A DNA stretch of 54,960 nucleotides from the IMG/VR virus record IMGVR_UViG_3300020172_002489, positions 1 to 54,960 of that record. The stretch is one strand, 5' to 3'. The stretch comes from a virus. Taxonomy: Duplodnaviria; Caudoviricetes. The notes under the pieces were generated by a model. It saw only the letters and a program-made list of their open reading frames with translations, had not been told where the DNA came from and made no database searches. Shown in pieces: positions 25,701 through 43,631 of this stretch; position 1 is the first letter of the stretch, and every line of letters begins with the position of its first letter. A program made the position numbers and the translations under genes.

Positions 25701-28435
25701 CAAAGAATGTTGTTGCCACAATATCACGAGTAAGAAGTTCCGCGCCAGTTGTAAACATTTCGGCAAACCCACAATCCCAAACTGTAACAAGTGGTTCTTT
25801 AGTTGGTATAGGAACACCGACTAATGTAACCGTTGTGGTAAATGAAGGTGGTTCAAATTATACATATAATACAAGTGGAGCAAATACTTTTAATATAACT
25901 GGTGTTACAAATGCTACAAATAATGGTAATGGTACAATCACGCCCAACACCCCAAGTAGTATTAGTGGTACGAGTGGTGTAATAACCATTTCTTACAGAA
26001 ACTCCGAAGGTACTTCGTTTACTGGTAAAACTATTGATTTTGTAGTTGGAGTAAATGGTATCGGTAGTCCAGGTGCAACTGGAGCAACTGGTGCTGCAGG
26101 AGCAAATGGTGCGAATGGTGCTGCAGGTTCAAATGGAGTTGTAATAAATGTGTCACCACCATCACAAACCATAAGTAGAAGTACAAGTGGTGTATTTGAT
26201 ACACCTGCAATTTTTACAGTAACAGTTTCTGAAAATGGAACTTTACTTACACATCAGGCCGGTACTGGTACACCATCTACTTCTTATTTTACAATTACAT
26301 CTTTAAGTAATGGTACATTAACGGCTGGAAGCGGTACTACTACTCCTGATATAACTCCATCAACACCATCATCAACGGCAGGATTAACAACTACATTCAA
26401 TGTAACTTATACCGATTCCAAAGGTACCACATCTTCTGCAATTGCTCAATCTCATGTGGTTAGTGTTGCATTAGATGGTTCAACTGGGCCAGGCGTGGTT
26501 CATACTGGAATTTGGGCATCGGGTAGGGCATATCAGTACTCGGATGGTCTGACAGATTCAACAGGTAGAAGAGATACCGTATTGTGGAGTTCGACTGGGT
26601 CTCCCCCATACGATACTTATTACGCAACAAATACTTCACATACATCAACAAATAATAGTAGTACATCAACTGGTAGACCTGATTTAGGTGGACCGTGGAC
26701 ATCTCTTGGTACTCAAGATTTCTTTGTTGCTGCAAAGATTGGTATATTTGAAGAATCGTATGTCCAAAACACATTAAACATTGGTACAAATAATAATGGT
26801 GGAGTTTCTTCTGCTAATATAACTTTGGCTGGGAGTACATCGAATCCATATATTTCAATAGGACAAAGTGGAACTGTTGGTTCACAAGGATATAATATAA
26901 CTGGTATATTCTTAGGTCAAGATAGTGGAACTTCAAAACTTTCTTTAAAATCTGCAACAAATTCTTTAACTTGGGATGGAACAAATCTAAACATAGTTGG
27001 TAATTTAAGTGTTGGTAGTACAGTTCCAAATACAGTAGTAACTGGATTGGGAGCATTGGCAACTCAAAGTAGTGTATCAACTGGCCAAGTTACTGGTCTT
27101 GGAACATTGGCAACTCAAAATACAGTATCAACGGGACAAGTTACAGGATTAGGAGCATTAGCAACTTTAAGTACCGTAACAAATACAGAATTAGCGGCCA
27201 ACGCGGTAACGGAAGGTAAAATAGCAACAGATGCAGTTACTTCTGGTAAAATATCAGCGAACGCAATAGTTGCCGATAAAATTGCTGCAAATGCAATAGT
27301 TGCCGATAAAATTGCTACAAATGCTATAACTGCAGGTAAGATTGCTGCTGGTTCAGTAACGGCTGATAAAATAACAGTAAGTGAATTATCGGCGTTAGGT
27401 GCTACAATTGGAGGTTGGTCGATATCAAATACAGCTATATCAAAAACTACTGGTGGACAAGGTACTATTACTTTAGATTCTAGTAATAACAAAATTGTAT
27501 TAAGTGATACATCGGCTACTAGGTTTGAAGTTAATACTTCTACTAGTTTAACAATCCCAACTACATCAACGGATAGAAAAACATTAATTAGTAATGCCGG
27601 ATTTTTAGTGGCAAGAGATGATGAAAGATATTTTAGACATATTACTGATGGTGCTGCACCTATAGGCGGAAAATCATTCGTTTTTAATGATACTAAAGGT
27701 GGGTTTAGAACCGATATACTCACATTTCATACTCCTGTATTATCTGAAGATTATTTAAAATTTCCAACTTCAAGTGCCAATCTTGATAATGATTCGTTAT
27801 TACCATATCAAATAGTTAGTGGAACACCTAACCTATCATTTCCAATTTGGATGCCTAGAACATCGGAAGTAATAATGTACGATAGACCAGGTGACCCAGG
27901 CGGTGGTTACCAAGCAGGAAGTCAACCGTATAATGCAGGTGGATTACAAACTGATGGTGGAACTACTATTGGTGGAACTACATTTAGAATACATACTGGA
28001 GTACCGGAAAATGATAGTACATTTGGTGGTGTTACATTACCTCTTCGTTTTAGAATAGACCGATATGGTAGTGTTCAAATTCCAATATTAGCAAATGGTA
28101 CAATTACTACAATTAATAATATTGGCCAACTATCAACCTCATCTGATAAAAATTTAAAAATAGATGCTGGATTTATTGAAAACGGGCTTGATAAAGTATT
28201 AGCACTAAAACCACGATACTTTTATTGGAAAAATGATACATCAGCACCAAAAAAACAATTAGGATTTTATGCACAAGAAGTAAATGAAGTTTCCGAAGAA
28301 ACTGCCAATACACCTGCCGAAGGAGGTGGATGGGGAATTTACGATAGAGGTTTAATTGCTATTTTAACAAAAGCTATACAAGAATTATCTGAAAAAGTAG
28401 AAAAATTAGAAGCAAAAATAAGTGGGTCTATATGA
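22715..28435 (+). CDS. Long tail fibre/receptor-binding protein with C-terminal peptidase S74 intramolecular chaperone
   Basis: S/T/G-rich beta repeats, collagen-like segment, LGALATQ and AIVADKIA repeats, and SDKNLK...LKPRYFYWK...LGFYAQEV. The start could also be 22697. Confidence 0.85.
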   Translation: MAIIKSFSPFQNLSNFSTFIVDRNPNSDFFRITEFKETFSGGKNGFLIEGSEFLKETTEVKIEILDVEGNPVYFEPGKGIPDYYEGVSSLVSVHVYPDTPIGIGKITVLGELKEYINENGTLLPIPNEWKGVYNVKWERTFKINRNISNEDTVRFYRRPLVSISELVKPIFSKTIPSVTQSGSLEGIALQPTAGSNLSTWTAGTIYKLKITDGGSWTGSVDENIINLPSLPYSPTVREVLNSKEILVDVPYSIGNIVTNFSATPYTTSFEFLENQTIDSSALTGSFAKINISNLKTFVGDVARVKVFRKSRNEVTDFQFVQESKLESTELLRDITLPNDTEISYGNFTQTNLSNYWVTSSNSHPVSINVDVLQSAVKTDYNFSAGGIQQLITSESFSITKDVEYTLTFKTLISGSLNGSEYLRGYLSASDGYQQTFLNISGSDIYKTRQIVSQNIIANPISASNAKLVFDISGSDWYISNISLKNAQETSFSPDEFVLIQDIPRKLESETFDFRFEFYDINNNYVPVDVVASATFDGGNDFPTSAKILTLQSDRNAFRFFTGSIANPPFQQIGFTTTRQNIAGDITYDRSVFDITGSYISEAQYLSLGGTEYPGRLHTSSSAGFVVQLDEFSGSLDTSTTSLFRVGFITYTASADGLEDYETIYRLEDGDNAPGLFASSTANQFIYKATDLSLNPTGQVIVFDVRRKNLSSVGSPIIINSGSQVGTGPALNLLFDDPTTGVATYFLSGSTYNFLSGSTTYVFTSSDSFGIDYHDQIKITPVKILDGLSVNLTNENASLPALSTGFVSSGSFVATSGSVSVKVGAEDISRQEGLTTNNRFDIISASGVNCTPNDDTPDDSTYGITTLTADSGSLTLLVRYKDGAGDTTDVTKVVTYSKSKRGVPNVEVAVTPTAQSIQSNSRGSGSATPQTLTVTALEGGIDRFTGFGSITPTNGLTINSSSPPTITFTSNASSMTSDSGTVTIPVNFTDSENVSGTKNVVATISRVRSSAPVVNISANPQSQTVTSGSLVGIGTPTNVTVVVNEGGSNYTYNTSGANTFNITGVTNATNNGNGTITPNTPSSISGTSGVITISYRNSEGTSFTGKTIDFVVGVNGIGSPGATGATGAAGANGANGAAGSNGVVINVSPPSQTISRSTSGVFDTPAIFTVTVSENGTLLTHQAGTGTPSTSYFTITSLSNGTLTAGSGTTTPDITPSTPSSTAGLTTTFNVTYTDSKGTTSSAIAQSHVVSVALDGSTGPGVVHTGIWASGRAYQYSDGLTDSTGRRDTVLWSSTGSPPYDTYYATNTSHTSTNNSSTSTGRPDLGGPWTSLGTQDFFVAAKIGIFEESYVQNTLNIGTNNNGGVSSANITLAGSTSNPYISIGQSGTVGSQGYNITGIFLGQDSGTSKLSLKSATNSLTWDGTNLNIVGNLSVGSTVPNTVVTGLGALATQSSVSTGQVTGLGTLATQNTVSTGQVTGLGALATLSTVTNTELAANAVTEGKIATDAVTSGKISANAIVADKIAANAIVADKIATNAITAGKIAAGSVTADKITVSELSALGATIGGWSISNTAISKTTGGQGTITLDSSNNKIVLSDTSATRFEVNTSTSLTIPTTSTDRKTLISNAGFLVARDDERYFRHITDGAAPIGGKSFVFNDTKGGFRTDILTFHTPVLSEDYLKFPTSSANLDNDSLLPYQIVSGTPNLSFPIWMPRTSEVIMYDRPGDPGGGYQAGSQPYNAGGLQTDGGTTIGGTTFRIHTGVPENDSTFGGVTLPLRFRIDRYGSVQIPILANGTITTINNIGQLSTSSDKNLKIDAGFIENGLDKVLALKPRYFYWKNDTSAPKKQLGFYAQEVNEVSEETANTPAEGGGWGIYDRGLIAILTKAIQELSEKVEKLEAKISGSI
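26063..26137 (+). repeat. Collagen-like (Gly-X-Y)8 segment in the tail fibre
   Basis: GSP GAT GAT GAA GAN GAN GAA GSN G. Confidence 0.85.
27034..27380 (+). repeat. Fibre shaft repeats (VTGLGALATQ x3; 10-aa AI/VxxxKIA repeats)
   Basis: Includes an exact 24-nt repeat GCAATAGTTGCCGATAAAATTGCT at 27263 and 27293. Confidence 0.85.
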
Positions 28436-28514
28436 TAGTTTATATCCAGATTTGTCTAGCATAAGTGGTGAAAATTGGATTTGTATAGTTTGGGTTTGGA
28501 AAAATAAATTTTAA
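28431..28514 (+). pseudogene. Decayed C-terminal fragment of a prolyl-4-hydroxylase-type 2OG-Fe(II) oxygenase
   Basis: Translates YDSLYPDLSSISGENWICIVWVWKNKF*, matching the SLH(A)GxPV.xGEKW...W.R pattern with degenerate substitutions. Confidence 0.55.
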
Positions 28515-28541
28515 ATACTTAGATAAAAGTTATATTAGAAT

Positions 28542-29573
28542 ATGAAGGTTTTAATTTCAACAGGTGGAGGTAATACGATAGTAGGTGGCTCTGATATGTG
28601 GGTAAACGATTTTCTTAAATACGTCTGGCCTACTCTTCCTTTGAAAAAAAGTTGGAAATTATTATTTGATTCAAAAAGACCTGCTAGTTTTAATCCAGTC
28701 TCCCTACCAAAAGGTCTTGCATATCATTTTCATGGAGATAACCCCGATGTAACGGAACAATGGTTAAAAAATTGTGAAGAAATTCATGTTTTACATCCAC
28801 ATTATCATAAGAGACCTCATATATGGCAGCATGAGGATAAATTTGAAACAATATTTGTTCATGCTTATGCTAAAGAAATTTTAAATGTTTTGGATAATAT
28901 GCCTGAATTAAATCAAATTCAAACTCAAACAAATGTTGATGTAAAATTTTATGAGGAGTATCTTTCAACATTTAGAAAACGAGTATGGATTGGTAATAAT
29001 CATTCAACATTATTAGATGATTTTCCAAATTATACATATGAAATTCCAAATTTTTATAAATTTAAACATAACTTACCACTCACTTCTCATATTGATAATG
29101 GAAAAATAGGATTTGCTTCGAGGACAGAAACTAGAAAATGTTTGCATTGGTTAAATGGTCATCAAGGATTCGCATTGACATCTCAACATGATGTAAAGAA
29201 TCTAAGAGATACTACAACTTATACATTAAAAGATATTGATATTTATCAATGGGACCCTGATATTTATCATTTTTTCATGTTAAAAAATTGGGGTATTTTT
29301 CATGGGGCATATTTTAAAGAACCATTTGGTTATTCTATTTTTCAATCGGTTGATTATGGAAAACTACCAATTTTAAATCACGATTGGGCACCCGAAGTAG
29401 AATACAAATACAGAGTTGGAAATAAGATGGAATTTGATAAAATGGTAAAAATTATTTTAAAAGATTCGTATGAAACTCGTTTAGAAAATTTTACAAATTT
29501 AAAATCTTATATGCTGAAGTTTGATAATGTGGAAAAATGGGTAGATGATGTTCGAAACGTCTTACTCAGATAA
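28542..29573 (+). CDS. Glycosyltransferase, GT-B/GT4-like
   Basis: N-terminal GGSDMW; C-terminal KEPFGYSIFQSVDYGKLPI. Confidence 0.7.
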   Translation: MKVLISTGGGNTIVGGSDMWVNDFLKYVWPTLPLKKSWKLLFDSKRPASFNPVSLPKGLAYHFHGDNPDVTEQWLKNCEEIHVLHPHYHKRPHIWQHEDKFETIFVHAYAKEILNVLDNMPELNQIQTQTNVDVKFYEEYLSTFRKRVWIGNNHSTLLDDFPNYTYEIPNFYKFKHNLPLTSHIDNGKIGFASRTETRKCLHWLNGHQGFALTSQHDVKNLRDTTTYTLKDIDIYQWDPDIYHFFMLKNWGIFHGAYFKEPFGYSIFQSVDYGKLPILNHDWAPEVEYKYRVGNKMEFDKMVKIILKDSYETRLENFTNLKSYMLKFDNVEKWVDDVRNVLLR

Positions 29574-29725
29574 TTTTTTATATATTTTTATATAAATATA
29601 TATCGTTTGAGAGAATCTCTCATACTTATACTAAGAAGGGGGGTAGGGGGGTAGTTAAAATAGTTATTAAACTATTAGTTTAAATAAGTATAAAAAAATA
29701 GTATATACTATAAGTTATTAATACT
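29574..29725. other. Palindrome-rich intergenic element with G6-TA-G6 tract
   Basis: TGAGAGA-A-TCTCTCA (29608-29622), GGGGGGTAGGGGGGTAG (29638-29654), TTAAACTA-T-TAGTTTAA (29667-29683), ATAGTATATACTAT (29698-29711). Confidence 0.7.
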
Positions 29726-30508
29726 ATGGGTAGCATTATTAATCTTAATATCGTAAAAGATTTTTTCACAAACAACCAAACTCAACAAAAGGATGTCGAT
29801 GGTGAGTCTTATGTCGAATTAAATCCTATTAAGTATCGTTGGACACATGGTGCAACTGATTTACATTTAGGTGATGGGTTATTAATTTATTCTACGATTC
29901 AATACATGAGGGCAAAGACTTGTGTTTGTTTGGGAAGTGGGGGTGGTTTCATTCCAAGAGTCATGTCTCAAGCAAGAATGGAATTACACGAACAAGAAAT
30001 TTTTACTGGTGATAAATTAATGGAATGGGGTGATATTGGAACAACCATTCTTGTAGATGCATCAAATGGAGTTGGTGGTCAAACTGATTGGGTAGATGAA
30101 GAATCATTTTTTAGACAACATTTTCCTTGTAGAATTATTTTAGATACAACTGAAAATGCATTTTACAATTATTTTGTAAAAGAAGATGTTAAAATTGATT
30201 ATTTACACATAGATGCTGGACATTCCTACGAAAATGTAAAACAAGATTTTGAACTATATTCACAACTTTTAAATCCGTGGGGTATAATTTCAATTCATGA
30301 TACTGATTTATCTTACGAGAAAGAGCATATTATTACTAATGATGTAAAATCAGAAAATCATCAAGAATATGCACATGGACCATCTCGGTTTGTTAAAGAA
30401 CTAAAACAAAATTCAGAGTGGGAGGTTTTTAATTTTTTTAATAATGGTATTTTAAGAACTAAACCAGCATCAACTGGTTTAACTTTTATTCAAAGATGCA
30501 AAAACTAA
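29726..30508 (+). CDS. Class I SAM-dependent methyltransferase (Methyltransf_24-like)
   Basis: CLGSGGGF, IDYLHIDAGHSYENVKQD and GIISIHDT. Confidence 0.85.
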   Translation: MGSIINLNIVKDFFTNNQTQQKDVDGESYVELNPIKYRWTHGATDLHLGDGLLIYSTIQYMRAKTCVCLGSGGGFIPRVMSQARMELHEQEIFTGDKLMEWGDIGTTILVDASNGVGGQTDWVDEESFFRQHFPCRIILDTTENAFYNYFVKEDVKIDYLHIDAGHSYENVKQDFELYSQLLNPWGIISIHDTDLSYEKEHIITNDVKSENHQEYAHGPSRFVKELKQNSEWEVFNFFNNGILRTKPASTGLTFIQRCKN

Positions 30509-31347
30509 ATTTGGTTAATGTTGTAGGCCATAATACTACAATGTTAAAACATATGTTAAATCACTATAACGATATGGTAGATGAAATATATGTAGTAGTT
30601 TATAGACAACACGAACTTGATGGTATTTTAGAAGAAATAGTTAATCTTGGCATAAAACCATATAAAGTTGTAACCGAACCAAAATTTAATTGGGAAAGGG
30701 TAACTGAACTATATAATGAAGTAAAACAAACAAAACCTAACGAATGGTGGGTAGTTTCCGATGATGATGAATTTCATATTTACCCCAAGCCAATCAGAGA
30801 AATGATTTCTGAATGTGAAGAAAATGGATGGGATTTTATTACTGGTGGATTTCTCGATAGGATAGGAGAGAATGGTAATTTTCCATTAGTTACACAACAA
30901 ACTGATATTTGGAATGAGTTTCCACTTGCCGGATTTTTTAGATTTCCAATGAGTGGGGCTTGTCCAAATAAAGTTTGTGTGATGAAAGGTTCGGTAAATG
31001 TAACACCTGGTCAACATTATGTAGATTTTGGGAATGGTAAAAACTCTTGGGGAAAAGAAAATATCAAACACCCAAAAAGATACCCAATTGGAAGAGGAGA
31101 GGGATTGATTCAGGTCCATCACTTTAAATGGGATTCTACCGTATTGGAACGATTAAAAGAAGTTTCTGAAACAAAAAAGGATTATACTTACTGGCAAGAA
31201 TACTTAAAAATGTTTAAATCAATCGAACTATTTGATTGGAAAATTGATATAAATAATCCCGAATTTATGTTTGAACGGATGAATTCAAAAAATCATTGGG
31301 GATATTCAAGGTGGGATAAGCTCACTAAAAAAATTGTACTAATTTAA
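30496..31347 (+). CDS. GT-A fold glycosyltransferase (GT2/GT92-like)
   Basis: WWVVSDDDEF DxD motif; GQH and VHHFKW. Confidence 0.75.
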   Translation: MQKLNLVNVVGHNTTMLKHMLNHYNDMVDEIYVVVYRQHELDGILEEIVNLGIKPYKVVTEPKFNWERVTELYNEVKQTKPNEWWVVSDDDEFHIYPKPIREMISECEENGWDFITGGFLDRIGENGNFPLVTQQTDIWNEFPLAGFFRFPMSGACPNKVCVMKGSVNVTPGQHYVDFGNGKNSWGKENIKHPKRYPIGRGEGLIQVHHFKWDSTVLERLKEVSETKKDYTYWQEYLKMFKSIELFDWKIDINNPEFMFERMNSKNHWGYSRWDKLTKKIVLI

Positions 31348-31354
31348 AAAATAA

Positions 31355-31366
31355 TATATTTATATA
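31355..31366 (+). promoter_or_regulatory. TATATTTATATA putative phage promoter motif
   Basis: Intergenic; upstream of ATG 31389. Confidence 0.6.
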
Positions 31367-31388
31367 TACGAATAAAAATAAAAAAGTT

Positions 31389-31592
31389 ATGGCTGTTACG
31401 AAAAAAATTGGTGATGAAAACCAACAAATTTTAGAAGAGAGAAAAGTTAAAGCATTAGAAAAAATTGCTAATTCTCTTGATGCATTAACCATTTGGTTTG
31501 AAGAAATTGATAAAGATACTTGGGGTCCAAGAATCGAATGGTATTTATCGTTGTGGAAAGATAAATATATCGATGGTGATTCTAAAAAATAA
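31389..31592 (+). CDS. Hypothetical protein
   Basis: 67-aa ORF downstream of the promoter motif. Confidence 0.65.
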   Translation: MAVTKKIGDENQQILEERKVKALEKIANSLDALTIWFEEIDKDTWGPRIEWYLSLWKDKYIDGDSKK

Positions 31593-31596
31593 TTAA

Positions 31597-33021
31597 ATGC
31601 ATAAATTAGGAATAATAGTTCCTTACCGAAATCGATTTGGTCACCTTCAAGAATTTAAAAAATCAATAGTTGAATATCTCGATTCAAATTCATATCAAAA
31701 TTATGTAATCATTATTGTAGAACAAGATGATGCAAAATTATTCAATCGTGGAATGCTACTAAATATCGGTTTCAAAGAAGCAAAGAAACAAGATTGTGGT
31801 TATGTAGCATTCCACGATGTGGATATGATACCTAAAAATGTAGATTATTCATATTCAGATAACCCACTTCATCTTTCTACTGATTTTATTTTGGAGGATG
31901 ACGAAAAACCAAGAACTATTTTTGATGAATATTTTGGTGGAGTAACCATGTTTCCAATCGATAAATTCGAAGAAATCGATGGATATTCAAACAAGTATTG
32001 GGGGTGGGGATATGAGGATGATGATTTAAGATTAAGATGTTCGGAAAAAGGAATTCCATTACAAACACTTAAAATTAAAAACTATAAATCAAACGGAAAA
32101 TCTTTAAAATTAAATGGTGTAAATGCTTTTGTTAAAGTAAAAAACACAATTGATTTCAGACAAAGTTTTTCAATTTTTATTTCTTTTTATCCTGATAAAT
32201 TATATCTCAATCATGAGAAATCTTCAGATGAATTTACGGTATTTAGTATTCCTGGTTATGATTTTGGTATAAGTTATACATCTTTTAATCGATATAATTT
32301 TTGTTGTTTTGATTCGAAATTAACACCATTATATGTAAATTCAAATATCAAACCAAACTACAAAACCAATATGGTAGTCAGTTTTGATTCTTTATCAAAT
32401 TTGATTAAAATTTATCAAGATGGTTCAGAAATTGGTCAACTAGAAAATTTTAAAAAACTTTACAAATATAACACAAAAGAATATTATTACTTGGGTGTAG
32501 GTGACCCAAATAGAGAAATCATACCAAACTTTTTTAAAGGATATATTGATGGTTTTGCACAATGGGATAAAGTTTTAACTGATACTGAAATTTTAGATAT
32601 ATCAAAAAACGAAACTAATTTATTAAATAAAAATTTTGGTAATTATAACTCAGCAAATTCGTTAAATACTTATTATGATTCTAATCACATAAAGTATTAC
32701 AAACTAACTGATTTATCAGGAAACGAAAATGATGGTGAAATTGTAAATTGTGAAATTGTAGATTTAGATATACCGAAATATACTGAAGTAAAAATCCCAT
32801 ATAGAAGAAATGGATTATTTAAATCTTTAAAACATGATGAAAATGGATTTGACGGGCAACGATGGAAAGACAAACACACTCGTTATAATCAATTAAGATT
32901 TGTAAACGAAGTATCGAATCACATATCGTTAATTAATAGAGATGGGTTATCTACTTTAAAATATCTTCTTTACGGTAAAACGGAATCTGATAATATAATA
33001 CACTTAAATGTGGGAATATAA
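31597..33021 (+). CDS. GT7 (beta-1,4-galactosyltransferase family) protein with inserted LamG/ConA-like domain
   Basis: IIVPYRNR, FNRGMLLNIGF, FHDVD, YFGGV, GYSNKYWGWGYEDDDL; LamG motif FKGYIDGFAQWDKVL; C-terminal DGLSTLKY. Confidence 0.88.
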   Translation: MHKLGIIVPYRNRFGHLQEFKKSIVEYLDSNSYQNYVIIIVEQDDAKLFNRGMLLNIGFKEAKKQDCGYVAFHDVDMIPKNVDYSYSDNPLHLSTDFILEDDEKPRTIFDEYFGGVTMFPIDKFEEIDGYSNKYWGWGYEDDDLRLRCSEKGIPLQTLKIKNYKSNGKSLKLNGVNAFVKVKNTIDFRQSFSIFISFYPDKLYLNHEKSSDEFTVFSIPGYDFGISYTSFNRYNFCCFDSKLTPLYVNSNIKPNYKTNMVVSFDSLSNLIKIYQDGSEIGQLENFKKLYKYNTKEYYYLGVGDPNREIIPNFFKGYIDGFAQWDKVLTDTEILDISKNETNLLNKNFGNYNSANSLNTYYDSNHIKYYKLTDLSGNENDGEIVNCEIVDLDIPKYTEVKIPYRRNGLFKSLKHDENGFDGQRWKDKHTRYNQLRFVNEVSNHISLINRDGLSTLKYLLYGKTESDNIIHLNVGI

Positions 33022-33035
33022 AAACATTTTATTAT

Positions 33036-33158
33036 ATGATATCATTTACAACAGAAGAATGTAAAAAAATAATTAAATTATCCTTACCACAAAGTTTAGA
33101 ACTTACACATATATGTATTTCAAAAACTACCATATCTAACACTAAAAGTTTACTATGA
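33036..33158 (+). pseudogene. 40-aa ORF, probable internally deleted 2OG-Fe(II) oxygenase remnant
   Basis: MISFTTEECKKIIKL...TKSLL*; its stop overlaps the next start (ATGA). FxxEECxxII is a typical N-terminal motif of these oxygenases. Confidence 0.4.
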
Positions 33159-34621
33159 AATTAGGAGTTTGTGTTCCGTATAGAAACCGAGAATCACACT
33201 TAAAAGAATTTATTCCACAAGTTGGTAAATATCTCGAAGAACAAGGAATTGATTATCAAATATATTTTGGTCACCAAGTTGATGACAAATTGTTTAATAG
33301 AGGTGCAATGAAAAACATTGCAGCAAAACAAGCATTCGAAGATGGATGTGATTATATAGTTTGGCATGACATTGATATGATACCCGAAGAAGGGTGTGAT
33401 TACTCGTTTCCTGATAAGAATCCAATTCATATTGCAACCAATATCTCACAAATGAATTATGAGTTAAAGTATGAAGAATACTTTGGTGGTGCAGTTATCT
33501 TTTCTAAAGAACAAGTGGAAAAAACCAATGGTTATTCAAATGATTATTGGGATTGGGGGATGGAAGATGATGACCTTTTTTGGAGATGTAATTTAGAAGG
33601 TTATGCAAATAATTCTTATATGGATTATACATCAGAACCACAATCTTTTTTACATTTTGATGGTTTTAATTCTCACATTAAAATTGATAAACATTCAACA
33701 CTTCGTAATGTAACATCTCGTTCCCATACTATTTCAGTTTTGGTTCGTGCAAATCAACAAGAAGAAAAAGTTCCTATTTGGTTAGTAGGTGATACTGAAA
33801 GGAGATTTTGTGAATATCCAATTATAAGAAGACCTGGATACGATTATGGAATCTCCTACAATAATTCTCGTGCATATACTGCACAACTTTGGGATAACGA
33901 GCAAAATCATTTATATCAATGGATGAAACGATACGAGAATCAATGGAGTTGGGTAACACTTTCAGTTGATACTTCAAATCAAAATATTCACTTTTATTTG
34001 AATGGAAAGGAATCCGATTCTCGTTGGGGAACTGGAACTCCGTCACCACTTCATTACGATAACAGATTAAAGAGTTATGGGTTAGATGATTGGTATATTG
34101 GTACAACTACTTCAGTAGGTAAGAAGGAGGTTAATAGATGGTTTAAGGGGGATATTGCAAAAGTAATGATTTGGAATAGAAACTTATCATCGGATGAAAT
34201 CCAAAATTTACATACAAATCCAACTCAAAATGGATTAGTTCTTCATTATGATTTCAATGATGAAAAACAAAAAAATTCTCCTTTTGTAGCAATTGATTTA
34301 AGTGGAAATGAAACACATGGTTCTATTAATAGATGTGAGGAAAAAAGTGAAGAAATCAAAATTCCATACACAATTATTCCACATAGAAAACCGGGTAAAT
34401 TGAGATGTTTACCACATAAAGATGAGGGGTTAATAAAAATAGATGGAGTTGATAAATGGGCAAAGGGTGAACCCACTGCAAGAAACGAAAGAAGATATGT
34501 TTTACAAATGCAACAAGGTGATTGGGATTACAAATCGGATGGGATTAATTCATTAAAATATGAACTAATTAGTATCGATGAATTGACACCTAAAGCAAAA
34601 ATGATAAATGTAAAATTGTAA
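33155..34621 (+). CDS. GT7 family protein with inserted LamG/ConA-like domain (paralog 2)
   Basis: VPYRNR, FNRG, WHDID, YFGG, GYSNDYWDWGMEDDDL; LamG motif FKGDIAKVMIWNRNLS; DGINSLKY. Confidence 0.88.
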   Translation: MKLGVCVPYRNRESHLKEFIPQVGKYLEEQGIDYQIYFGHQVDDKLFNRGAMKNIAAKQAFEDGCDYIVWHDIDMIPEEGCDYSFPDKNPIHIATNISQMNYELKYEEYFGGAVIFSKEQVEKTNGYSNDYWDWGMEDDDLFWRCNLEGYANNSYMDYTSEPQSFLHFDGFNSHIKIDKHSTLRNVTSRSHTISVLVRANQQEEKVPIWLVGDTERRFCEYPIIRRPGYDYGISYNNSRAYTAQLWDNEQNHLYQWMKRYENQWSWVTLSVDTSNQNIHFYLNGKESDSRWGTGTPSPLHYDNRLKSYGLDDWYIGTTTSVGKKEVNRWFKGDIAKVMIWNRNLSSDEIQNLHTNPTQNGLVLHYDFNDEKQKNSPFVAIDLSGNETHGSINRCEEKSEEIKIPYTIIPHRKPGKLRCLPHKDEGLIKIDGVDKWAKGEPTARNERRYVLQMQQGDWDYKSDGINSLKYELISIDELTPKAKMINVKL

Positions 34622-34644
34622 TATATATTAATAAATAAGAAGTT

Positions 34645-36102
34645 ATGGCTGAAGAAAATATAGAATTTCAGAAAGAAGAAAATAAAAAACTTAAAAAAAC
34701 ATTTGCGGGTGATAATCCATTTTATCTCGGTGTACGAGATGATTTAAATAAAATAGGACCAGGTATGTGTCTAGCAAAATGGACACAAGTAACTATGCAC
34801 TTACAACTCGGTCATACTCACTCATGTCACCACCCAAAAACTCATCCAATTTCACCATCGGAAATTAAAAGAAACCCATCTGCATTACATAACACTGCGT
34901 ATAAAAAACGAAGAAGAAAGGAAATGTTAGAAGGTAGTAGACCTGAAGAGTGTGATTATTGCTGGAATGTAGAAGATAATTCAGACAGATTTTCAGACAG
35001 AACATTCAAATCTTCTGAATCATGGTCTTTACCACATTATAAAGAAATTACCGAATTAAATTGGAGAGCCGATTACAATCCAAAATATGTAGAGGTTGCA
35101 TTCTCAAATGCTTGTAATTTTAAATGTTCTTATTGTGGCCCTGCTTTTTCTACTAAATGGATGGAAGAGATAGAAAAACATGGTGCATATCCTACAACTG
35201 ATCGATTTAATGATACTCGATATTTAGAAGAGGAAAATAAAAAACCATTTAAACAAACTGAATATAATCCTTATGTTGAGGCCTTTTGGAAATGGTGGCC
35301 TGATTTATATAAAGATTTACACACTTTTAGAATTACTGGTGGAGAACCTCTAATGTCAAAAGATACTTGGGATGTATTGGATTATATTATTGATAATCCT
35401 AATCCTAATAGAGGATTGAATTTAGCAATTAATTCAAATCTCGGTGTTCCTGATAAACTAATTGATAAGTTTATTGAAAAGATAAAAAGAATAACTGAAG
35501 AAAATCGAGTAAATGAATTTATAGTGTTTACATCATGTGATACATGGGGAGACCAAGCAGAATACATTAGAAATGGGTTAGTGTTTAATCAATTTTGGGA
35601 CAATGTAAACAAATTAATGAGCAATTGTCCAAGAGTTAATTTAACTTTTATGTCTACATATAATGCATTGTCAGTTCCAAACTACGATAAACTTATAGAA
35701 GGAGTATATCAACTTAAAAAAGATTACGGGTCAACTGATAGATATTGGGCATCTGCTGTATTTTTAGATACATCTTATTTGAGATATCCAACCCATCAGA
35801 CGGTACAAGTATTACCACAATCTTGGACAGAAAATATATTTAAACAAGCCCAACTTGCAGATTTTCTTTCTGTGCCTCTTTTTGAAAACAAATACATTGG
35901 GTATTCTGATATAGAAATTCAAAAAATCAAAAGAACATACGATTGGATGAAATCGGTAAAACAAGATGAAGAACTACTTAGAAAACAATATAATTTTGGT
36001 AAGTATTTCCAAGCACACGATGATAGACGAGGAACTAATTTTAAAAAAGTATTTCCTGAATTAGCAGAATTTTTTGAATGGACAAAAACAATTAATATAT
36101 GA
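34645..36102 (+). CDS. Radical SAM protein with N-terminal Twitch/SPASM-like domain
   Basis: CNFKCSYC and ITGGEP; N-terminal CLAKW...SCHH...CDYCW. Confidence 0.88.
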   Translation: MAEENIEFQKEENKKLKKTFAGDNPFYLGVRDDLNKIGPGMCLAKWTQVTMHLQLGHTHSCHHPKTHPISPSEIKRNPSALHNTAYKKRRRKEMLEGSRPEECDYCWNVEDNSDRFSDRTFKSSESWSLPHYKEITELNWRADYNPKYVEVAFSNACNFKCSYCGPAFSTKWMEEIEKHGAYPTTDRFNDTRYLEEENKKPFKQTEYNPYVEAFWKWWPDLYKDLHTFRITGGEPLMSKDTWDVLDYIIDNPNPNRGLNLAINSNLGVPDKLIDKFIEKIKRITEENRVNEFIVFTSCDTWGDQAEYIRNGLVFNQFWDNVNKLMSNCPRVNLTFMSTYNALSVPNYDKLIEGVYQLKKDYGSTDRYWASAVFLDTSYLRYPTHQTVQVLPQSWTENIFKQAQLADFLSVPLFENKYIGYSDIEIQKIKRTYDWMKSVKQDEELLRKQYNFGKYFQAHDDRRGTNFKKVFPELAEFFEWTKTINI

Positions 36103-36833
36103 GTAGTTTAAAATTTGAAGGTAATAATGCTTGGTTTGTAACTCCCGATAACAAATACGGATTAAGTAAATTTCCAATGAAAAACATAACCGAAAATGAT
36201 TTTTCTTTTTTAACATCTATACGAGTAAATTGGGATAAAATGAATCCAAATAATAATACACGAGAAGGTGGAGTTATTATAAAAAATGGATTACATTTAG
36301 GTTTGAGTGTAATTAAACCAGATAACGAGCATGTGTATATTAAAGGAACTATATGGACAATGGATGCGAGTTTAGGTTCAAATGCAATGAAAAATTATGA
36401 TATACTTGTAAAAGTTAATTGGGAAGATGGTGATTTGGATAAAGAATATAAAGTAGGATTTTCTTTTAAAAGAAAAGAAAAAGAATTTTCTGTATATTGT
36501 AATGGAACGTGGTTGACTGAAAAGTTTGAGGGGTCTTTAATTGATTATTCAAACGCTTGGTTATGGGTAGGAGCATCAAATCCATTAGAGAGTTGTCCAG
36601 AAGATTTTAGACAATTTTTTAATGGAGAAATGTATTATGCAGCTATTTTTTCAAAATTTTTAGATAGAAGTGAAATTGAAGAAATTTATAACGAACCCGA
36701 TGATGTATCTAAAAGATTGAAACCAACTTGTATTTTTAATTTTAAAAGACAAACTCCTTATAAAATATTAGATATATCGGAAGTAGGAAATAATTTAATT
36801 AGATTTGATAAAGAATGGATGGATTCGATTTAA
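36099..36833 (+). CDS. Stand-alone LamG/ConA-like domain protein
   Basis: SLKFEG, LWVGA, FNGEMYYAAIFSKFL and DISEVGN, resembling the inserts in the GT7 genes. Confidence 0.65.
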   Translation: MSSLKFEGNNAWFVTPDNKYGLSKFPMKNITENDFSFLTSIRVNWDKMNPNNNTREGGVIIKNGLHLGLSVIKPDNEHVYIKGTIWTMDASLGSNAMKNYDILVKVNWEDGDLDKEYKVGFSFKRKEKEFSVYCNGTWLTEKFEGSLIDYSNAWLWVGASNPLESCPEDFRQFFNGEMYYAAIFSKFLDRSEIEEIYNEPDDVSKRLKPTCIFNFKRQTPYKILDISEVGNNLIRFDKEWMDSI

Positions 36834-38251
36834 ATAAAATTCCAAAAACTTATTTTGTTTTAGAATTTAAAGGACCAGGTGGATATATTCCATTGGGGTA
36901 TACAAAATATACCTTACCTATTATGATGCAATATAAATTTAAAAATACAAAAGATGCAGATTTTACAGCATATCACGCATCTACATCAGAACCTGTAAAA
37001 TATTATTACAATAGGACTGCTGAATTTTCAAATCATGTGGTAAACCATACAAAAAATACTCAATTTGTGTTGACAAAGGATATTAAAAATAATATAAAAT
37101 CGCATAGTTTATATTTGGTAGTTCTTGAAAGTTTAAATGTTAATAATATGTTTGAATATTATTCATCGGATAAATTTAAAATGGAAGATTTTTTTTCGCC
37201 CGATTTATTGAATTTGATAAAAAATAATGTTAATTTTAAAATAGTTTTTATTGATGCAGGTGAAGGAGCTTACATGCATACTATGAGTTTGTTAGAAAAA
37301 ATACATTCCTTTTTAAAGAGAAATAATATAAATCATAAAAATAAAGTTTTCATATCTACCAATAATAACAATATAGTAGATTTAAAAAAAACAAATAGAT
37401 TTTTAAAATTTGAAAATCAAATTGATGTATTCCCAAATAATCATCTAATTACTGTTGCAGGAAAATTTATGAGTGATTTACGAGCAGGTATAAAAGTAGT
37501 CCAAGATGATGACGGTTATGATTATTCAATTCAAGATAAATTAAAATTTAATAAAAAAGAAAAAAAATTTTTAATGTATAATCGAAATTCCGAAAGAATA
37601 CACAGAGCATATTTTGTGAATTTGTTATACAAAAATAATTTATTAAATAAGGGATATGTATCTTTTTTAGAAAATCCAGATTTTGTAGATTTTTTATATA
37701 AAGACAAAGATTATCCCGAATTATTTTTAAGTGAATTGGATATTTTAGATATTCGTAATAACTACAAAAATTATTACCCATTAGTAATTGATGATTCTAA
37801 TGCTGATAGAGTATCTATATATCATAATTTTTTGAGTAGAAGAGACGAATATGAGAATTCATATTTTACAATAATATCAGAAACAAACGCTCAAACTTCT
37901 TATTCATTCCTAACAGAAAAAACAATAAAACCAATAATGAATCTACATCCATTTGTAGTATTAGGTAATCCAAACACATTGGATGTATTAAAATCATTTG
38001 GATTTAAAACTTTTGATAGATGGTGGGATGAATCGTATGATAGTGTTAAAAATTTTAAAGATAGAGCAAATAAATTATTAGATTTAGTAAATTTTTTATG
38101 TGAAAAAAGTGATGATGAGTGGATTTTAATGTTACAAGAAATGGAAGATATATTAATACATAATCAAAAATTACTACATAAATTATCTACTAATAAAATA
38201 GAAATTAAAAAATTTTTTAAAAAAATGTTAGAACAAACTCCATTAATATGA
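36815..38251 (+). CDS. Putative glycosyltransferase (GT10-like TEK family), paralog 2
   Basis: FLMYNR...HR, IISET, FLTEKTIKPI, PFVVLG and GFKTFDRWWDESYD. Confidence 0.55.
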   Translation: MDGFDLNKIPKTYFVLEFKGPGGYIPLGYTKYTLPIMMQYKFKNTKDADFTAYHASTSEPVKYYYNRTAEFSNHVVNHTKNTQFVLTKDIKNNIKSHSLYLVVLESLNVNNMFEYYSSDKFKMEDFFSPDLLNLIKNNVNFKIVFIDAGEGAYMHTMSLLEKIHSFLKRNNINHKNKVFISTNNNNIVDLKKTNRFLKFENQIDVFPNNHLITVAGKFMSDLRAGIKVVQDDDGYDYSIQDKLKFNKKEKKFLMYNRNSERIHRAYFVNLLYKNNLLNKGYVSFLENPDFVDFLYKDKDYPELFLSELDILDIRNNYKNYYPLVIDDSNADRVSIYHNFLSRRDEYENSYFTIISETNAQTSYSFLTEKTIKPIMNLHPFVVLGNPNTLDVLKSFGFKTFDRWWDESYDSVKNFKDRANKLLDLVNFLCEKSDDEWILMLQEMEDILIHNQKLLHKLSTNKIEIKKFFKKMLEQTPLI

Positions 38252-39216
38252 AACAAATTTTAATTACCGGAGGTGCAGGATACCTTGGTTCGGTTTTGGT
38301 AGATAGATTATTAAGTAGTGGTTATGAAGTAACTGTATTAGATAATTTGATGTATAATCAGACATCACTAATTCATTATTCTTATAATAAGAATTTCCAT
38401 TTTATTTATGGGGATGTCAGAGATACTACTTTACTAAAAAAACTTGTACCACTATTCAACATGGTTATTCCACTTGCAGCAATTGTAGGATTTCCTGCTT
38501 GTGATAGAGATAAAGTTCTTGCAACTGCAGTAAATTATCAACACGTTAAAGAAATATGTGATTTAGTTCGTGGTACAAATATAAAAGTAGTATATCCAAA
38601 CACAAATAGTGGGTACGGGATAGGAGAGAATGGTGAGTGTACTGAAGAAAGTCCACTTAACCCAATTTCCCACTATGGGGTAACCAAAGTACTTGCCGAG
38701 AGAGAGATATTGGCAGTAGGTGGCATTTCGGTAAGACTTGCCACCGTCTTTGGTTCATCTCCAAGAATGAGAATGGATTTATTAGTAAATGAATTTGTTT
38801 ACAAAGCATTAACTGATAAATACATTACTATTTTCGAGAAAAATTTTAAAAGAAATTATATTCACATTCGAGATGTTGCAAAAACTTTCCAATATATGTT
38901 GGAAAATTATCAAAAATTCTCGGGTGAAGTATTTAATGTAGGGCTAACATCTGCAAATTTAACAAAAGCTCAATTAGTAGAAAAAATCAAAGAATATGTT
39001 CCCGATTTTGCAATCACATATTCTGATTTTTATCAAGACCCCGATAAGAGAGATTACTTGGTTTCAAATGCCAAAATCGAATCTACTGGTTGGTCACCTG
39101 ATTGGAGTTTGGATGATGGTATCGAAGAACTTATCAAAACTTATACAATTTTAATACAAGATTTATCATCAAAATATAGGAATGGATTTCCTTTAGGTTA
39201 TGGGATTAGGACGTAG
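38248..39216 (+). CDS. NAD-dependent epimerase/dehydratase (extended SDR)
   Basis: ITGGAGYLG, YGVTK and RNYIHIRDVA. Confidence 0.9.
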   Translation: MKQILITGGAGYLGSVLVDRLLSSGYEVTVLDNLMYNQTSLIHYSYNKNFHFIYGDVRDTTLLKKLVPLFNMVIPLAAIVGFPACDRDKVLATAVNYQHVKEICDLVRGTNIKVVYPNTNSGYGIGENGECTEESPLNPISHYGVTKVLAEREILAVGGISVRLATVFGSSPRMRMDLLVNEFVYKALTDKYITIFEKNFKRNYIHIRDVAKTFQYMLENYQKFSGEVFNVGLTSANLTKAQLVEKIKEYVPDFAITYSDFYQDPDKRDYLVSNAKIESTGWSPDWSLDDGIEELIKTYTILIQDLSSKYRNGFPLGYGIRT

Positions 39217-39784
39217 TTTATTTTATAAAGAAAGAAGTTGGAATGATTTCCACTTTTATAATGGTTCGGTTTTACCACAAGTAAAAATCGTACAACCATC
39301 GATTTATCACGAAATTCGTGGTTCAATATCAACAACTTATCATTCAGATTATTACGATAGATTGTTGCCTGCTGCAGAAAGAAACGAAGGTCTTTCATTT
39401 AAACATGATAGATACTCCAAATCTAAAAAAGGTGTTCTTCGAGGATTACATTGGGATGAAAAAACTTGGAAAATGGTTTCGTGTCCACATGGTAGAATTT
39501 ATTTAGTAGTTTTGGATGTAAGAGAAAAAACTCCTGATTTTGGTAAATGGGAAACATTTATTCTCTCACCTGAAACTGGGACTCAAGTTTTAGTTCCACC
39601 TTATTTTGCCAATGGTCATTTTGTAATGGAAGATGATTCTATTTTTTCATATAAAATGGCGTATGAAGGTGAATATAATGATGAAAATAAACAACATACT
39701 ATTGTGTGGAACGATTCAAGATTTAATATAGATTGGCCAACTGATAATCCAATCTTATCTAAACGAGACAAATATGGAAATTAA
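39200..39784 (+). CDS. rmlC: dTDP-4-dehydrorhamnose 3,5-epimerase family
   Basis: SKKGVLRGLH, KMVSCPHGRIY..LDVR, PPYFANGH and IDWP...S.RD. Confidence 0.85.
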   Translation: MGLGRSLFYKERSWNDFHFYNGSVLPQVKIVQPSIYHEIRGSISTTYHSDYYDRLLPAAERNEGLSFKHDRYSKSKKGVLRGLHWDEKTWKMVSCPHGRIYLVVLDVREKTPDFGKWETFILSPETGTQVLVPPYFANGHFVMEDDSIFSYKMAYEGEYNDENKQHTIVWNDSRFNIDWPTDNPILSKRDKYGN

Positions 39785-40412
39785 AAATTTAGAGTATCAC
39801 GAGACTCGTTGGTTGGGAAGTAATTGGAATAAGGAAGAACTTATTCATTTTGAAGATGATATTATTTCTCATTGGGAAAAGGGAGAAATAAAAGGACCTA
39901 TTCATTTATCAAATGGAAATGAAGAACAACTCATTGAAGTATTCAAAAAAATATCACCAACTGATTGGGTATTTTCAACTTGGAGGTCACACTATCATGC
40001 ACTTCTTCATGGAGTTAAACCACGAAAATTAAAAGAAAAAATTCTTGATGGTAAATCAATAACAATTATTGATAAAGAATCTAATTTCTATTCATCTGCT
40101 ATTGTCACTGGAACTTTACCTATTGCATTAGGAGTTGCAAAATCATTAAAAATGAAAGGAAGTGACGAGAAGGTTTGGTGTTTTATTGGTGATATGAGTT
40201 TTGAAACTGGTTTCTTTTATGAAGTACATAAATATGCCAGAAACTTTGATTTACCTTTATATTTTGTAGTTGAAGATAATGAAGTATCGACAAATACCCC
40301 AACATTGGATACATGGGGTGGTATTCAACGAGAAATACCAAATGATGTAATCTATTATAAGTATAAATCTAAATACCCACATTATGGGACAGGAAAATGG
40401 GTAGTGTTTTAA
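39774..40412 (+). CDS. TPP-dependent E1-alpha-like subunit (short)
   Basis: HLSNGNE, STWRSH, and TPP motif GDMSFETG...VVEDN. Confidence 0.85.
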   Translation: MEIKNLEYHETRWLGSNWNKEELIHFEDDIISHWEKGEIKGPIHLSNGNEEQLIEVFKKISPTDWVFSTWRSHYHALLHGVKPRKLKEKILDGKSITIIDKESNFYSSAIVTGTLPIALGVAKSLKMKGSDEKVWCFIGDMSFETGFFYEVHKYARNFDLPLYFVVEDNEVSTNTPTLDTWGGIQREIPNDVIYYKYKSKYPHYGTGKWVVF

Positions 40413-41518
40413 ACTTTATAATACAAGATGAAAATAGTTATGGAAACTGGTCTTTTCAGGGTCCAATAATTCAAAAAGTTATGAATGAATATTCATACAC
40501 TATTTTTCCAGAAGTTAAAAAAGATTGTAAAAATTATTTATTAATTGAACCAACTGAATCTTATTTCGGTTTAGTAAAAAGAATTGATGCTATTTTAAGA
40601 AAAATAGATATTAAAAAATTCATAGAAAAAAATAATGTAAAAATATTATTATCTTCTATGGCTGACCCCCCAACTTTTTCGAATTATAAACAATTATCTA
40701 TAAAATTAAAAAAACATAAAATTTTAGATAGATGTTTATTTTTAACTAGTAATATTAATTTACAAGGAAATAATATTAAATCATATCATTTTTTTATTGA
40801 ACAGGCAATTAAATCCAAAGATTCATTTTTTGGAGTAGATACTTGTTTAGGATATAAAAGTGAAGAAATACAAATCAATGAATTAGATAATTTTAGAAAC
40901 AAAAAGTTTTTATCATTTAATAGAACTGTTGATAAAGAACATAGATTTTCATTATTTCATGATTATTTAACAAATAATTTTACTGATTCGTATTTTAGTT
41001 TTTTGACATTAGAAGGAATACATTGTCCACCTTTTCAAGATAATCAACTAACACTTGAACAATATTTAGAAAAAATACCTATTGAATTGGATACTAATAA
41101 AAAATTTAATTTTAGTGTAAGTAATACTATGCGAAAAGATTTATTTTTAGATTCTTGTATTAATTTAGTCACAGAAACTTCTTATAATAATAATGAATTA
41201 TTTTTATCAGAAAAAATTTTAAAGCCTATTTTAAATTATCAACCTTTTATCGTCTTAGGTCCAGTAAATTATCTAAAAGAATTAAAAAAATTAGGATTTA
41301 AAACATTTTCTGATTTTTGGGATGAATCTTATGATAATATAGAAGAAGGAAGAGATAGATATTTTAAAGTTTCTGAACTAATAATAAACTTAAATTCATT
41401 TGATATTAATAAACTAAATAATTTATACCAAGAAACAAAAAAAATTTGTATATATAATAAGAATCATTTTAATGAACTTAAAATGGATGGTATAAGTTTA
41501 TTTTTTGACAAATTATAA
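40397..41518 (+). CDS. Putative glycosyltransferase (GT10-like SEK family), paralog 3
   Basis: FLSFNR...HR, LVTET, FLSEKILKPI and GFKTFSDFWDESYD. Confidence 0.55.
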   Translation: MGSVLNFIIQDENSYGNWSFQGPIIQKVMNEYSYTIFPEVKKDCKNYLLIEPTESYFGLVKRIDAILRKIDIKKFIEKNNVKILLSSMADPPTFSNYKQLSIKLKKHKILDRCLFLTSNINLQGNNIKSYHFFIEQAIKSKDSFFGVDTCLGYKSEEIQINELDNFRNKKFLSFNRTVDKEHRFSLFHDYLTNNFTDSYFSFLTLEGIHCPPFQDNQLTLEQYLEKIPIELDTNKKFNFSVSNTMRKDLFLDSCINLVTETSYNNNELFLSEKILKPILNYQPFIVLGPVNYLKELKKLGFKTFSDFWDESYDNIEEGRDRYFKVSELIINLNSFDINKLNNLYQETKKICIYNKNHFNELKMDGISLFFDKL

Positions 41519-41519
41519 T

Positions 41520-42626: not shown

Positions 42627-42636
42627 ACTTATTATA

Positions 42637-43628: not shown

Positions 43629-43631
43629 GTT

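Follow-up and report, generated by a model that had tools for sequence, protein, structure and literature searches.

Introduction

The animal beta-1,4-galactosyltransferases 1 and 7 (beta4GalT1 and beta4GalT7; family GT7 of the CAZy glycosyltransferase (GT) classification; PDB entries 1tvy, 4irq and 3lw6) carry a membrane anchor and a stem. According to a section of PMC4202792, the donor pocket of beta4GalT1 is lined by Asp252, Glu317 and Asp318, and D318 and D320 are essential. Mn2+ site I is formed by Asp254, Met344 and His347, and the enzyme is bound by alpha-lactalbumin (both from a section of PMC7565966). Proteins of about 215-320 amino acids (aa) encoded by bacteria, phages and giant viruses also belong to the family and are called mini-GT7 here. 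The polypeptide GalNAc-transferases (GT27) carry a C-terminally appended ricin-type lectin domain.

GT7 enzymes of this kind transfer Gal or GalNAc from a UDP-sugar in beta-1,4 linkage, with inversion. Here, two adjacent genes of an uncultured phage, T4-like and aquatic, are described that encode GT7 proteins of a further type. They are located in the IMG/VR virus record IMGVR_UViG_3300020172_002489, the whole of which (54,960 nt) was analysed and is referred to as the window. The genes are named par1 (open reading frame (ORF) 31597-33021, 474 aa) and par2 (ORF 33155-34621, 488 aa). In both proteins, as judged from sequence comparison, the LamG-like module is a genuine insertion, and the GT7 catalytic domain around it is complete and apparently active. 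The phage GT7-LamG proteins are a real and widespread variant of a known enzyme family, annotated automatically at the domain level and uncharacterised.

Domain architecture

Each of the two proteins matches three Pfam families. In par1, Glyco_transf_7N (67.8 bits, cut-off 27) covers residues 2-86, Glyco_transf_7C (63.7 bits, cut-off 23) covers residues 104-161, corresponding to positions 11-70 of the 78 in the profile, and Laminin_G_3 (36.1 bits, cut-off 27.6) covers residues 188-332. In par2 the scores are 67.6 bits for Glyco_transf_7C, 63.1 bits for Glyco_transf_7N and 48.8 bits for Laminin_G_3, the last at residues 172-350. Both proteins are thus members of GT7 by Pfam, with partial matches that begin at position 47-48 of the GT7N profile and reach position 64-70 of 78 in GT7C. 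The GT7C match ends where the LamG match starts in both. When PDB sequences were searched with phmmer, residues 1-165 of par1 matched beta4GalT7 and beta4GalT1 (E ~1e-25), after which the match stopped. Compared as full proteins with their inserts, the two paralogues share 32% identity (E 4e-62).

An exhaustive HMMER search with par1 covered 1.84 billion representative sequences. Among its hits were uninserted proteins, about 215-235 aa long, whose match to par1 is split into two stretches. Thirteen such relatives were aligned with par1 and par2. All 13 run straight across the break, the LamG block of about 240 residues being a gap in each, and the C-terminal part with its His (par1 H413), Asn431 and Gly450 is common to all 15 sequences. 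A profile built from this alignment, with the insert columns treated as insert states, matches human and bovine beta4GalT1 with E 2.5e-59; profile positions 3/4-221 fall on positions 63/65-283 of the beta4GalT1 chain with no gap at the junction. An earlier note on this DNA, made from the sequence, had described the two GT7 segments as contiguous in beta4GalT, and this comparison bears it out. The C-terminal motif given in that note is present, with one residue of its spacing off, and can be aligned to the ends of both the uninserted proteins and beta4GalT1.

The limits of the inserts were taken from the alignment with the 13 uninserted relatives, the pairwise alignment of par1 and par2, and the fold ranges. 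All parts lie on the plus strand. The N-terminal GT7 part of par1 (31597..32079, residues 1-161) holds the Pfam GT7N and GT7C matches and the motifs PYRNR, FNRG, HDVDM (the DxD) and YWGWGYEDDD; it is followed by the inserted LamG/pentraxin-like beta-sandwich (32080..32793, residues ~162-399) and the C-terminal GT7 segment (32794..33021, residues 400-474), which contains the metal-site His413 and finishes with DG..LKY. In par2, the N-terminal GT7 part (33155..33622, residues 1-156), likewise recognised by Pfam, has the motifs HDIDM and YWDWGMEDDD. The par2 LamG-like domain (33623..34360, residues ~157-402) is homologous to the par1 insert and sits at the same site, and the C-terminal GT7 segment with the invariant His421 (34361..34621) was defined by alignment with par1, the uninserted relatives and par2 orthologues. 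The earlier note had placed the LamG-like stretches of the two paralogues at ~32100-32760 and ~33650-34340, within about 30 nt of these limits.

Relative to bovine beta4GalT1, the insert falls between the residues aligned to positions ~333 and ~334, about 10 residues before position 344. The insertion site is a surface hairpin some 10 residues ahead of the metal-binding His, with which the long, flexible lid loop begins; in beta4GalT1 numbering the flexible loop comprises residues 345-365. The mini-GT7 proteins share 38-43% identity with the GT7 portions of par1, and have its truncated N-terminus and its C-terminal segment; a short hairpin takes the place of the LamG domain of par1 and par2. 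Giant-virus members among the BFVD models include those of Mimivirus LCMiAC01 (37%) and Megaviridae (31%).

An artefact, chimera or misassembly was rejected as the origin of the insert because the architecture recurs in 80 independent contigs (see below). Since the site is shared and the inserts are homologous, a single insertion event is favoured.

Predicted fold

For par1, AlphaFold2 was run on an alignment of 52 sequences. The model has a mean predicted local distance difference test (pLDDT) of 94.3 and a predicted template modelling score (pTM) of 0.88. With GT7 structures, the local alignments of Foldseek are confined to the N-terminal ~160 residues, beta4GalT1 being 33-37% identical to par1; with LamG-like structures they span about 250 columns. 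Structural alignment of the model with bovine beta4GalT1 reaches model residue 474 and bovine residue 398. As the ~50 residues aligned beyond the N-terminal block belong to the C-terminal segment, this segment is predicted to complete the GT7 fold, which the earlier note had made the touchstone of its reading. The par1 model thus has the complete catalytic fold of GT7, including the C-terminal strands after the lid loop, and the insert has the two-sheet jelly roll of the Laminin_G_3/concanavalin A-like class. The high pTM suggests that the two domains of par1 are held in a fixed orientation.

The top structural matches of the insert are pappalysin PAPP-A and the pentraxins. Its identity to Laminin_G_3/pentraxin-like jelly rolls (the LG domain of PAPP-A, BACOVA_03559 of PDB entry 4dqa, PTX3 and CRP) is 11-15%. 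Jelly rolls of this type are secreted, whereas the phage LamG domains are cytoplasmic and embedded in an enzyme. No two-domain match was among the top 50 of a BFVD fold search, which consisted of LamG-only or GT7-only viral proteins (best TMq 0.40).

Active site and solubility

Conservation was assessed in alignments of 54 par1 and 54 par2 sequences, each comprising the window and 53 related loci. In par1, D74, D76, Y112, W137, E140 and D141 are invariant, and D143 and H413 are conserved in at least 90%. In par2, D72, D74, Y109, W134, E137, D138-D140 and H421 are invariant. Two features of GT7, the DxD motif for metal and UDP and the EDDD segment with the catalytic Asp, are present in both paralogues and align to bovine D252/D254 and E317-D320. 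The Tyr before FGG (par1 Y112, par2 Y109) occupies a position which we take to limit the donor to Gal over GalNAc in beta4GalT1. On these sequence comparisons both paralogues are catalytically intact, apparently active GT-A glycosyltransferases of the GT7 (beta4GalT-like) fold. A pseudo-enzyme was ruled out for par1 and par2 by the conserved catalytic and metal residues.

The paralogues differ consistently in the small loop that bears the Trp314 equivalent. The WDWG of par2, where par1 has WGWG, was read correctly in the earlier note; D133, the Asp of WDWG, is conserved in at least 90% of the par2 sequences, so WDWG marks the par2 orthogroup and not the window alone. That note had also assigned the C-terminal His to the metal-binding loop. 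In the HMMER alignment, which may be off by a few residues in the loop, a conserved His (par1 H413, par2 H421) falls on bovine 344, a Mn2+ site I position, and not on His347. Position 344 is Met in wild-type bovine enzyme and His in the M344H crystal 1tvy.

Compared with the crystallised domain of animal beta4GalT, par1 and par2 lack the first ~50-60 residues, and they have neither the anchor nor the stem. Because both start at the first Rossmann strand and contain no hydrophobic segment (maximum 19-residue Kyte-Doolittle hydropathy 0.71 for par1 and 0.32 for par2), they are expected to be soluble. The type II membrane topology with stem of animal GT7 members is thus absent, and is not required of the sequence family. 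The proteins differ from animal beta4GalT in being phage-encoded and cytoplasmic, in the 240-residue LamG domain, and in the lack of a conserved His347.

The LamG module and its free-standing relative

Both inserts exceed the threshold of Laminin_G_3 (PF13385). The window also encodes a free-standing LamG-like protein of 244 aa (36099..36833, plus strand), homologous to the whole insert. It has no Pfam match itself; a precomputed PF13385 match exists for 4 of its 58 close homologues, and Laminin_G_3 was matched by 11 of the 27 sequences in its alignment (the window protein, without a match, and 26 relatives). Profile-profile comparison with the GT7-LamG family gave 99.2% probability and E 2.1e-19 over 206 columns, mapping the free LamG to par1 residues 169-383. 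This range spans the complete insert, together with the 'YYD...DLSGN' strand at its end. The free LamG gene at 36099, pointed out in the earlier note, is thus present and related to the inserts. In a tree of 135 LamG modules, the par1 inserts, par2 inserts and free proteins each fall on one side of a branch (support by the Shimodaira-Hasegawa-like approximate likelihood ratio test (SH-aLRT) 86, 98 and 100), and the free LamG is accordingly regarded as an old third lineage without recent excision from par1 or par2. The most conserved element of the insert, PGYD.GISY, is common to both paralogues.

A further Laminin_G_3 domain (residues 881-1019, E 8.7e-8) was found in a 1542-aa protein of the baseplate region (7985-12613, plus strand). 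LamG folds in this phage serve both presumed structural proteins and enzymes.

Distribution

A word-indexed search with par1 returned 1757 clusters (90% identity) at E<=0.001. The best 120 of these have lengths of 464-482 aa and 100% query coverage; 116 carry all three Pfam domains, and every one of the 120 is unnamed or 'hypothetical'. The exhaustive HMMER search returned 5214 representatives at E<=0.001, of which 131 at E<=1e-30, and by hand count 48 of its best 150 match at least 400 query residues in one stretch. Among the 30 nearest ESM-Atlas clusters, 26 have the three domains, and 100% of those with taxa shown are Viruses (Uroviricota). In IMG/VR, at least 503 stretches encode relatives of par1; the best 80, on contigs of up to 335 kb, were analysed as loci.

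In a set with one genome per prokaryotic species, the inserted form occurs in only 3 of 54 loci. Two of the three have the phage cassette and are binned with metagenome-assembled genomes (MAGs) of Pelagibacterales and Flavobacteriaceae, and the third lies in a Spirochaetales MAG, where two divergent copies stand beside radical S-adenosylmethionine (SAM) genes. About 26 other loci of prokaryotic genomes encode uninserted proteins that match only residues ~1-150/197. The mini-GT7 form is thus found in cellular genomes, whereas the inserted form is essentially viral.

No match in INPHARED, where records near the window genome may not be covered, was obtained for 31597-36833 by megablast or for par1 or par2 by tblastn. 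In PHROGs, par1 had no match and par2 matched an unnamed family only, and NCBIfam had no match for par1, par2 or ORF 36099. From this distribution, the inserted architecture is abundant and essentially viral, and all examples come from uncultured material. Full-text literature searches found no published characterisation of a GT7 protein with an inserted LamG domain, and the papers naming PF13733 or PF02709 all appear to concern eukaryotes. The earlier note had named a widespread and characterised architecture as grounds against its reading; widespread it is, and no characterisation was found. Its description of the enzymes as 'eukaryote-like' fits the identity to beta4GalT1 and needs qualification by the many uninserted prokaryotic and viral mini-GT7 proteins, because of which the GT7 domain is not uniquely eukaryotic.

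Gene pair and cassette

For the context of the 80 loci, the proteins of the window island were compared by BLASTP with six-frame ORFs. The loci end at 8 kb or at a contig edge, and the counts of neighbouring genes are therefore lower bounds. Every one of the 80 loci has a par2-type gene immediately after a par1-type gene. Two copies are present in 68 loci and a third, par2-like copy upstream in the other 12. Of 79 loci (L076, with an ORF below 430 aa, was dropped), 67 have a par1 stop that overlaps the par2 start, and in 57 the overlap is 4 nt. The window has a gap of 133 nt, and six loci (L070, L071, L072, L073, L077 and L079) have a spacing of 397-548 nt. The gap of L070 (9413-9826), the one that was read, holds a 137-aa ORF with an HxGH-type motif, probably a small cytidylyltransferase. 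Prediction of a par1-par2 complex, run without controls, gave a score of 0.00 against a mark of 0.32 and speaks neither for nor against binding.

The pair is part of a cassette whose order, methyltransferase, GT2-like protein, par1, par2 and one or more twitch radical SAM proteins, is nearly constant in the 80 loci. In the window all five genes are on the plus strand. The first encodes a SAM-dependent methyltransferase (29726..30508; Methyltransf_24, E 2.5e-10; homologue at the same place in 74 of 80 loci). The second encodes a GT2-like GT-A protein (30496..31347; homologue in 77 of 80), whose Glyco_tranf_2_4 score of 23.8 bits is below the cut-off of 27.5 and which has no match to a PDB sequence at E<=1. 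The last core gene encodes a radical SAM protein with an N-terminal twitch domain (34645..36102; NCBIfam NF033640, 355.5 bits, cut-off 170), and homologues stand directly downstream of the pair in 78 of 80 loci, often as 2-5 tandem copies. Par1 and par2 are an ancient, obligately paired duplication in a conserved five-gene cassette.

Arrays of 4-5 twitch radical SAM paralogues follow par2 in L004, L035, L042, L056/L057, L059 and L082. 'Radical SAM cassettes' are mentioned for the hypervariable regions of pelagimyophages in a passage of PMC7029224. L076, a 7.5-kb contig labelled as a giant-virus MAG, has par1, par2, radical SAM and free LamG genes in the phage order and is probably a phage contig binned with that MAG; its par1 gene may be interrupted, since the tblastn match covers 2.1 kb for the 474-aa query.

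Genome context

CheckV estimates the completeness of the record at 27%. The G+C content is about 30%, and nearly all ORFs lie on the plus strand. T4-type baseplate wedge proteins, a gp25-like protein, a primase, a gp46/SbcC-like nuclease and a large terminase are encoded. The terminase is at most 55% identical to those of INPHARED phages, the best being Microcystis phage Mel-JY01 and the Flavobacterium 'immuto' phages, and the window is therefore regarded as part of the genome of a large myovirus that is uncultured and distantly T4-like. In a promoter and terminator scan of 28300-38400, predicted sites were not above those in shuffled sequences (56 vs 69.9 and 4 vs 3.0).

The cassette opens a sugar-nucleotide island of about 23 kb, directly downstream of a tail-fibre/receptor-binding module. 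Ser and Thr make up 25% of the 1912 aa of the fibre protein (22697-28435, plus strand), which also has a short collagen-like run of Gly-X-Y and, at its C-terminus, a Peptidase_S74 intramolecular chaperone; its gene ends 106 nt upstream of the island, and a homologue is found upstream in 26 of 80 loci. The island encodes three short-chain dehydrogenase/reductase-type epimerases or dehydratases, an RmlC-like epimerase, split thiamine pyrophosphate (TPP)-enzyme E1-like subunits, a second radical SAM protein and a large protein with a cytidylyltransferase domain. No membrane protein was predicted among the proteins of 28.5-51.4 kb (19-residue Kyte-Doolittle windows of at least 1.8); the sole stretch above 1.8, with 1.96 in the Rossmann-type epimerase at 38248, is not read as a membrane helix.

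The sugar-nucleotide part (38248-46628, plus strand) includes the RmlC-like 3,5-epimerase and the second radical SAM gene at 41505-42626. The TPP-enzyme pieces lie 4 kb apart (E1-alpha-like 39774-40412, transketolase-pyrimidine-like 44624-45172). These genes hint at an unusual branched or C-modified deoxysugar as product. They are followed by a gene for a 1145-aa protein (46756-50193, plus strand) with an N-terminal cytidylyltransferase-like domain and a C-terminal DUF5661 domain. A 478-aa ORF (36815-38251, plus strand) starts within the end of the free LamG gene and has homologues in 38 of 80 loci; in the ESM Atlas it falls in virus-only clusters of hypothetical proteins without a Pfam family. 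Assignment of this ORF to GT10 (fucosyltransferases) was rejected, the ESM Atlas resemblance of 0.78-0.79 being below the useful range.

Neighbouring genes were sampled with Pfam in seven loci (48 of 55 unassigned ORFs scanned). Upstream of the cassette, four collagen-repeat proteins, one with Peptidase_S74, and 12 Laminin_G_3 proteins (in four of the seven loci) were found. The latter form arrays of 1-4 beside collagen-repeat fibres (L009 1603-6136, L012 1-5786, L029 3-3927, L057 3337-4125). They are mostly 224-263 aa long and up to 650 aa in L012, the first of L012 and of L029 being truncated by the end of the locus. Receptor binding is their probable role, and they belong to another lineage than the free LamG, since they have no match to it at E<=1e-5. 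Downstream, DUF6071 proteins are encoded in three of the seven loci (L012 14433-15161, L029 14343-15134, L065 13017-14045), in L012 together with a UDP-glucose dehydrogenase-like gene and a carbamoyltransferase gene.

Elsewhere in the window, a 190-aa ORF (16247-16819, plus strand) matches Sulfotransfer_2 (PF03567, E 6e-14), a mostly eukaryotic family of carbohydrate sulfotransferases, and overlaps a gene for a SegE-like GIY-YIG homing endonuclease (16782-17240, plus strand, E 8e-23). A glycosaminoglycan-like product, suggested by this ORF, was set aside as a general feature, the family having been found in none of five related large records, a weak result as the control also found nothing.

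Proposed function

The favoured reading, to which we give an even chance, is that par1 and par2 act consecutively, that the LamG domain recognises the acceptor in cis, and that the targets are the fibre or other virion proteins of the phage itself. Each enzyme would be an inverting hexosyltransferase with a UDP-sugar as donor, in which the DxD/His site binds the metal and EDDD provides the base. The two would act in sequence on one growing glycan and differ in donor and/or acceptor, with which the WGWG and WDWG small loops are consistent. The LamG domain, rigidly packed beside the lid, may be a built-in acceptor-recognition module comparable to the lectin of the polypeptide GalNAc-transferases or to alpha-lactalbumin acting in trans on beta4GalT1, where a binding module tunes the acceptor choice of a GT-A enzyme. 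The comparison is one of analogy: the GT27 lectin has another fold and is C-terminal, and alpha-lactalbumin is a separate protein, whereas the phage LamG lies inside the catalytic fold. A cytoplasmic acceptor is probable, given that no membrane protein is encoded in the island; since the island also lacks export and lipid-carrier machinery, the Ser/Thr-rich fibre or another virion protein is favoured.

Several points weigh against this reading. Placement of the LamG relative to the active site is taken from the high pTM of a predicted model only, and both its ligand binding and its facing the active site are putative. The fibre was chosen as target from adjacency. The position equivalent to His347 is variable in the phage family, although the loop alignment may be off by a few residues. 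In the tree of GT7 cores the inserted proteins fall on one side of a branch with an SH-aLRT of 0, which lends no support to a single insertion. Finally, the glycosyltransferases in the host-recognition regions of pelagimyophages are read as modifying the host O-chain in a passage of PMC7029224.

That proposal leads to the main rival, which we consider doubtful: the same enzymes would remodel a glycan of the host envelope (O-antigen, capsule or lipid-linked precursors) and block superinfection or re-adsorption, the insert recognising the host glycan that is also bound by LamG-type receptor-binding proteins of the phage. It gains from the location of the cassette in a host-recognition region, from the 12 small Laminin_G_3 proteins just upstream in four of the seven sampled loci and from the Laminin_G_3 domain of the 1542-aa baseplate-region protein. 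It loses by the different lineage of those upstream proteins, and by the content of the 23-kb island, which has no flippase, polymerase, initiating phosphoglycosyltransferase or other predicted membrane protein, so that the route would have to borrow host machinery.

Consecutive action on a virion protein, as favoured here, also has to be weighed against the proposal of the earlier note, in which the insert would select acceptors or confer processivity and the pair may form a heteromeric polymerase. In its full form this would be an obligate par1-par2 heteromer, an alternating co-polymerase in which LamG holds the chain for processivity. The strict pairing and order in all loci, the stop/start overlaps, which suggest coupled translation, and the conserved yet consistently different active sites would all suit a heteromer. 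This support is genetic, and the same genetics fits two consecutive single additions equally well; a third copy in 12 loci, the pairs some 400-550 nt apart in six, and the cytidylyltransferase-like ORF in one of these gaps further make the proposal unlikely.

A very unlikely alternative gives the insert no role with the substrate and makes it a scaffold, either for oligomerisation or for docking onto the virion during assembly or onto another protein of the cassette. Protein-protein contacts are often made by LamG and pentraxin folds, PAPP-A and pentraxins are the top structural matches, and the free homologue could compete or partner; nothing direct speaks against a scaffold, and PGYD.GISY, the most conserved element, has no role assigned either way. 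Glycosylation of hypermodified phage DNA, as by the T4-type glucosyltransferases, would suit a T4-like phage with thymidylate-synthase-family genes (possibly hydroxymethylases) in three of four related large records, but is extremely improbable given a cassette-bearing record, 100% complete by CheckV, without such a gene, a LamG domain, sugar-type O-methyltransferase fold and fibre-adjacent position that do not fit, and T4 glucosyltransferases that to our knowledge are not GT7.

The favoured reading can be extended to a more specific proposal, in itself distinctly unlikely: the insert would be a specifier in the place of alpha-lactalbumin, the free LamG, of the same lineage, a specifier in trans that reprograms one of the two enzymes, and par1 and par2 as an obligate pair would build, together with the GT2-like protein, the methyltransferase and the radical SAM proteins, a repeating modified glycan on the phage's own fibres.

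Implications

If this last proposal is true, the host-recognition organelles of large aquatic myoviruses are coated with a glycan that the phages make themselves, by means of a branch of the animal galactosyltransferase family confined to phages. GT7 ranks with the best-understood families of animal glycosyltransferases, and its specificity is switched by a separate protein, alpha-lactalbumin; the phage branch would be a natural experiment in engineering acceptor specificity into a GT-A enzyme. As the enzymes are small and soluble, they should be easy to test. The glycan pathway to which they point is unstudied and, with 1757 clusters and at least 503 IMG/VR stretches, very common in phage metagenomes of aquatic origin. 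Should the target be the host envelope, they would be a new class of receptor-masking enzyme; should it be the virion, the range of phage self-glycosylation would widen beyond mycobacteriophages and take in abundant myoviruses of the sea and of fresh water.

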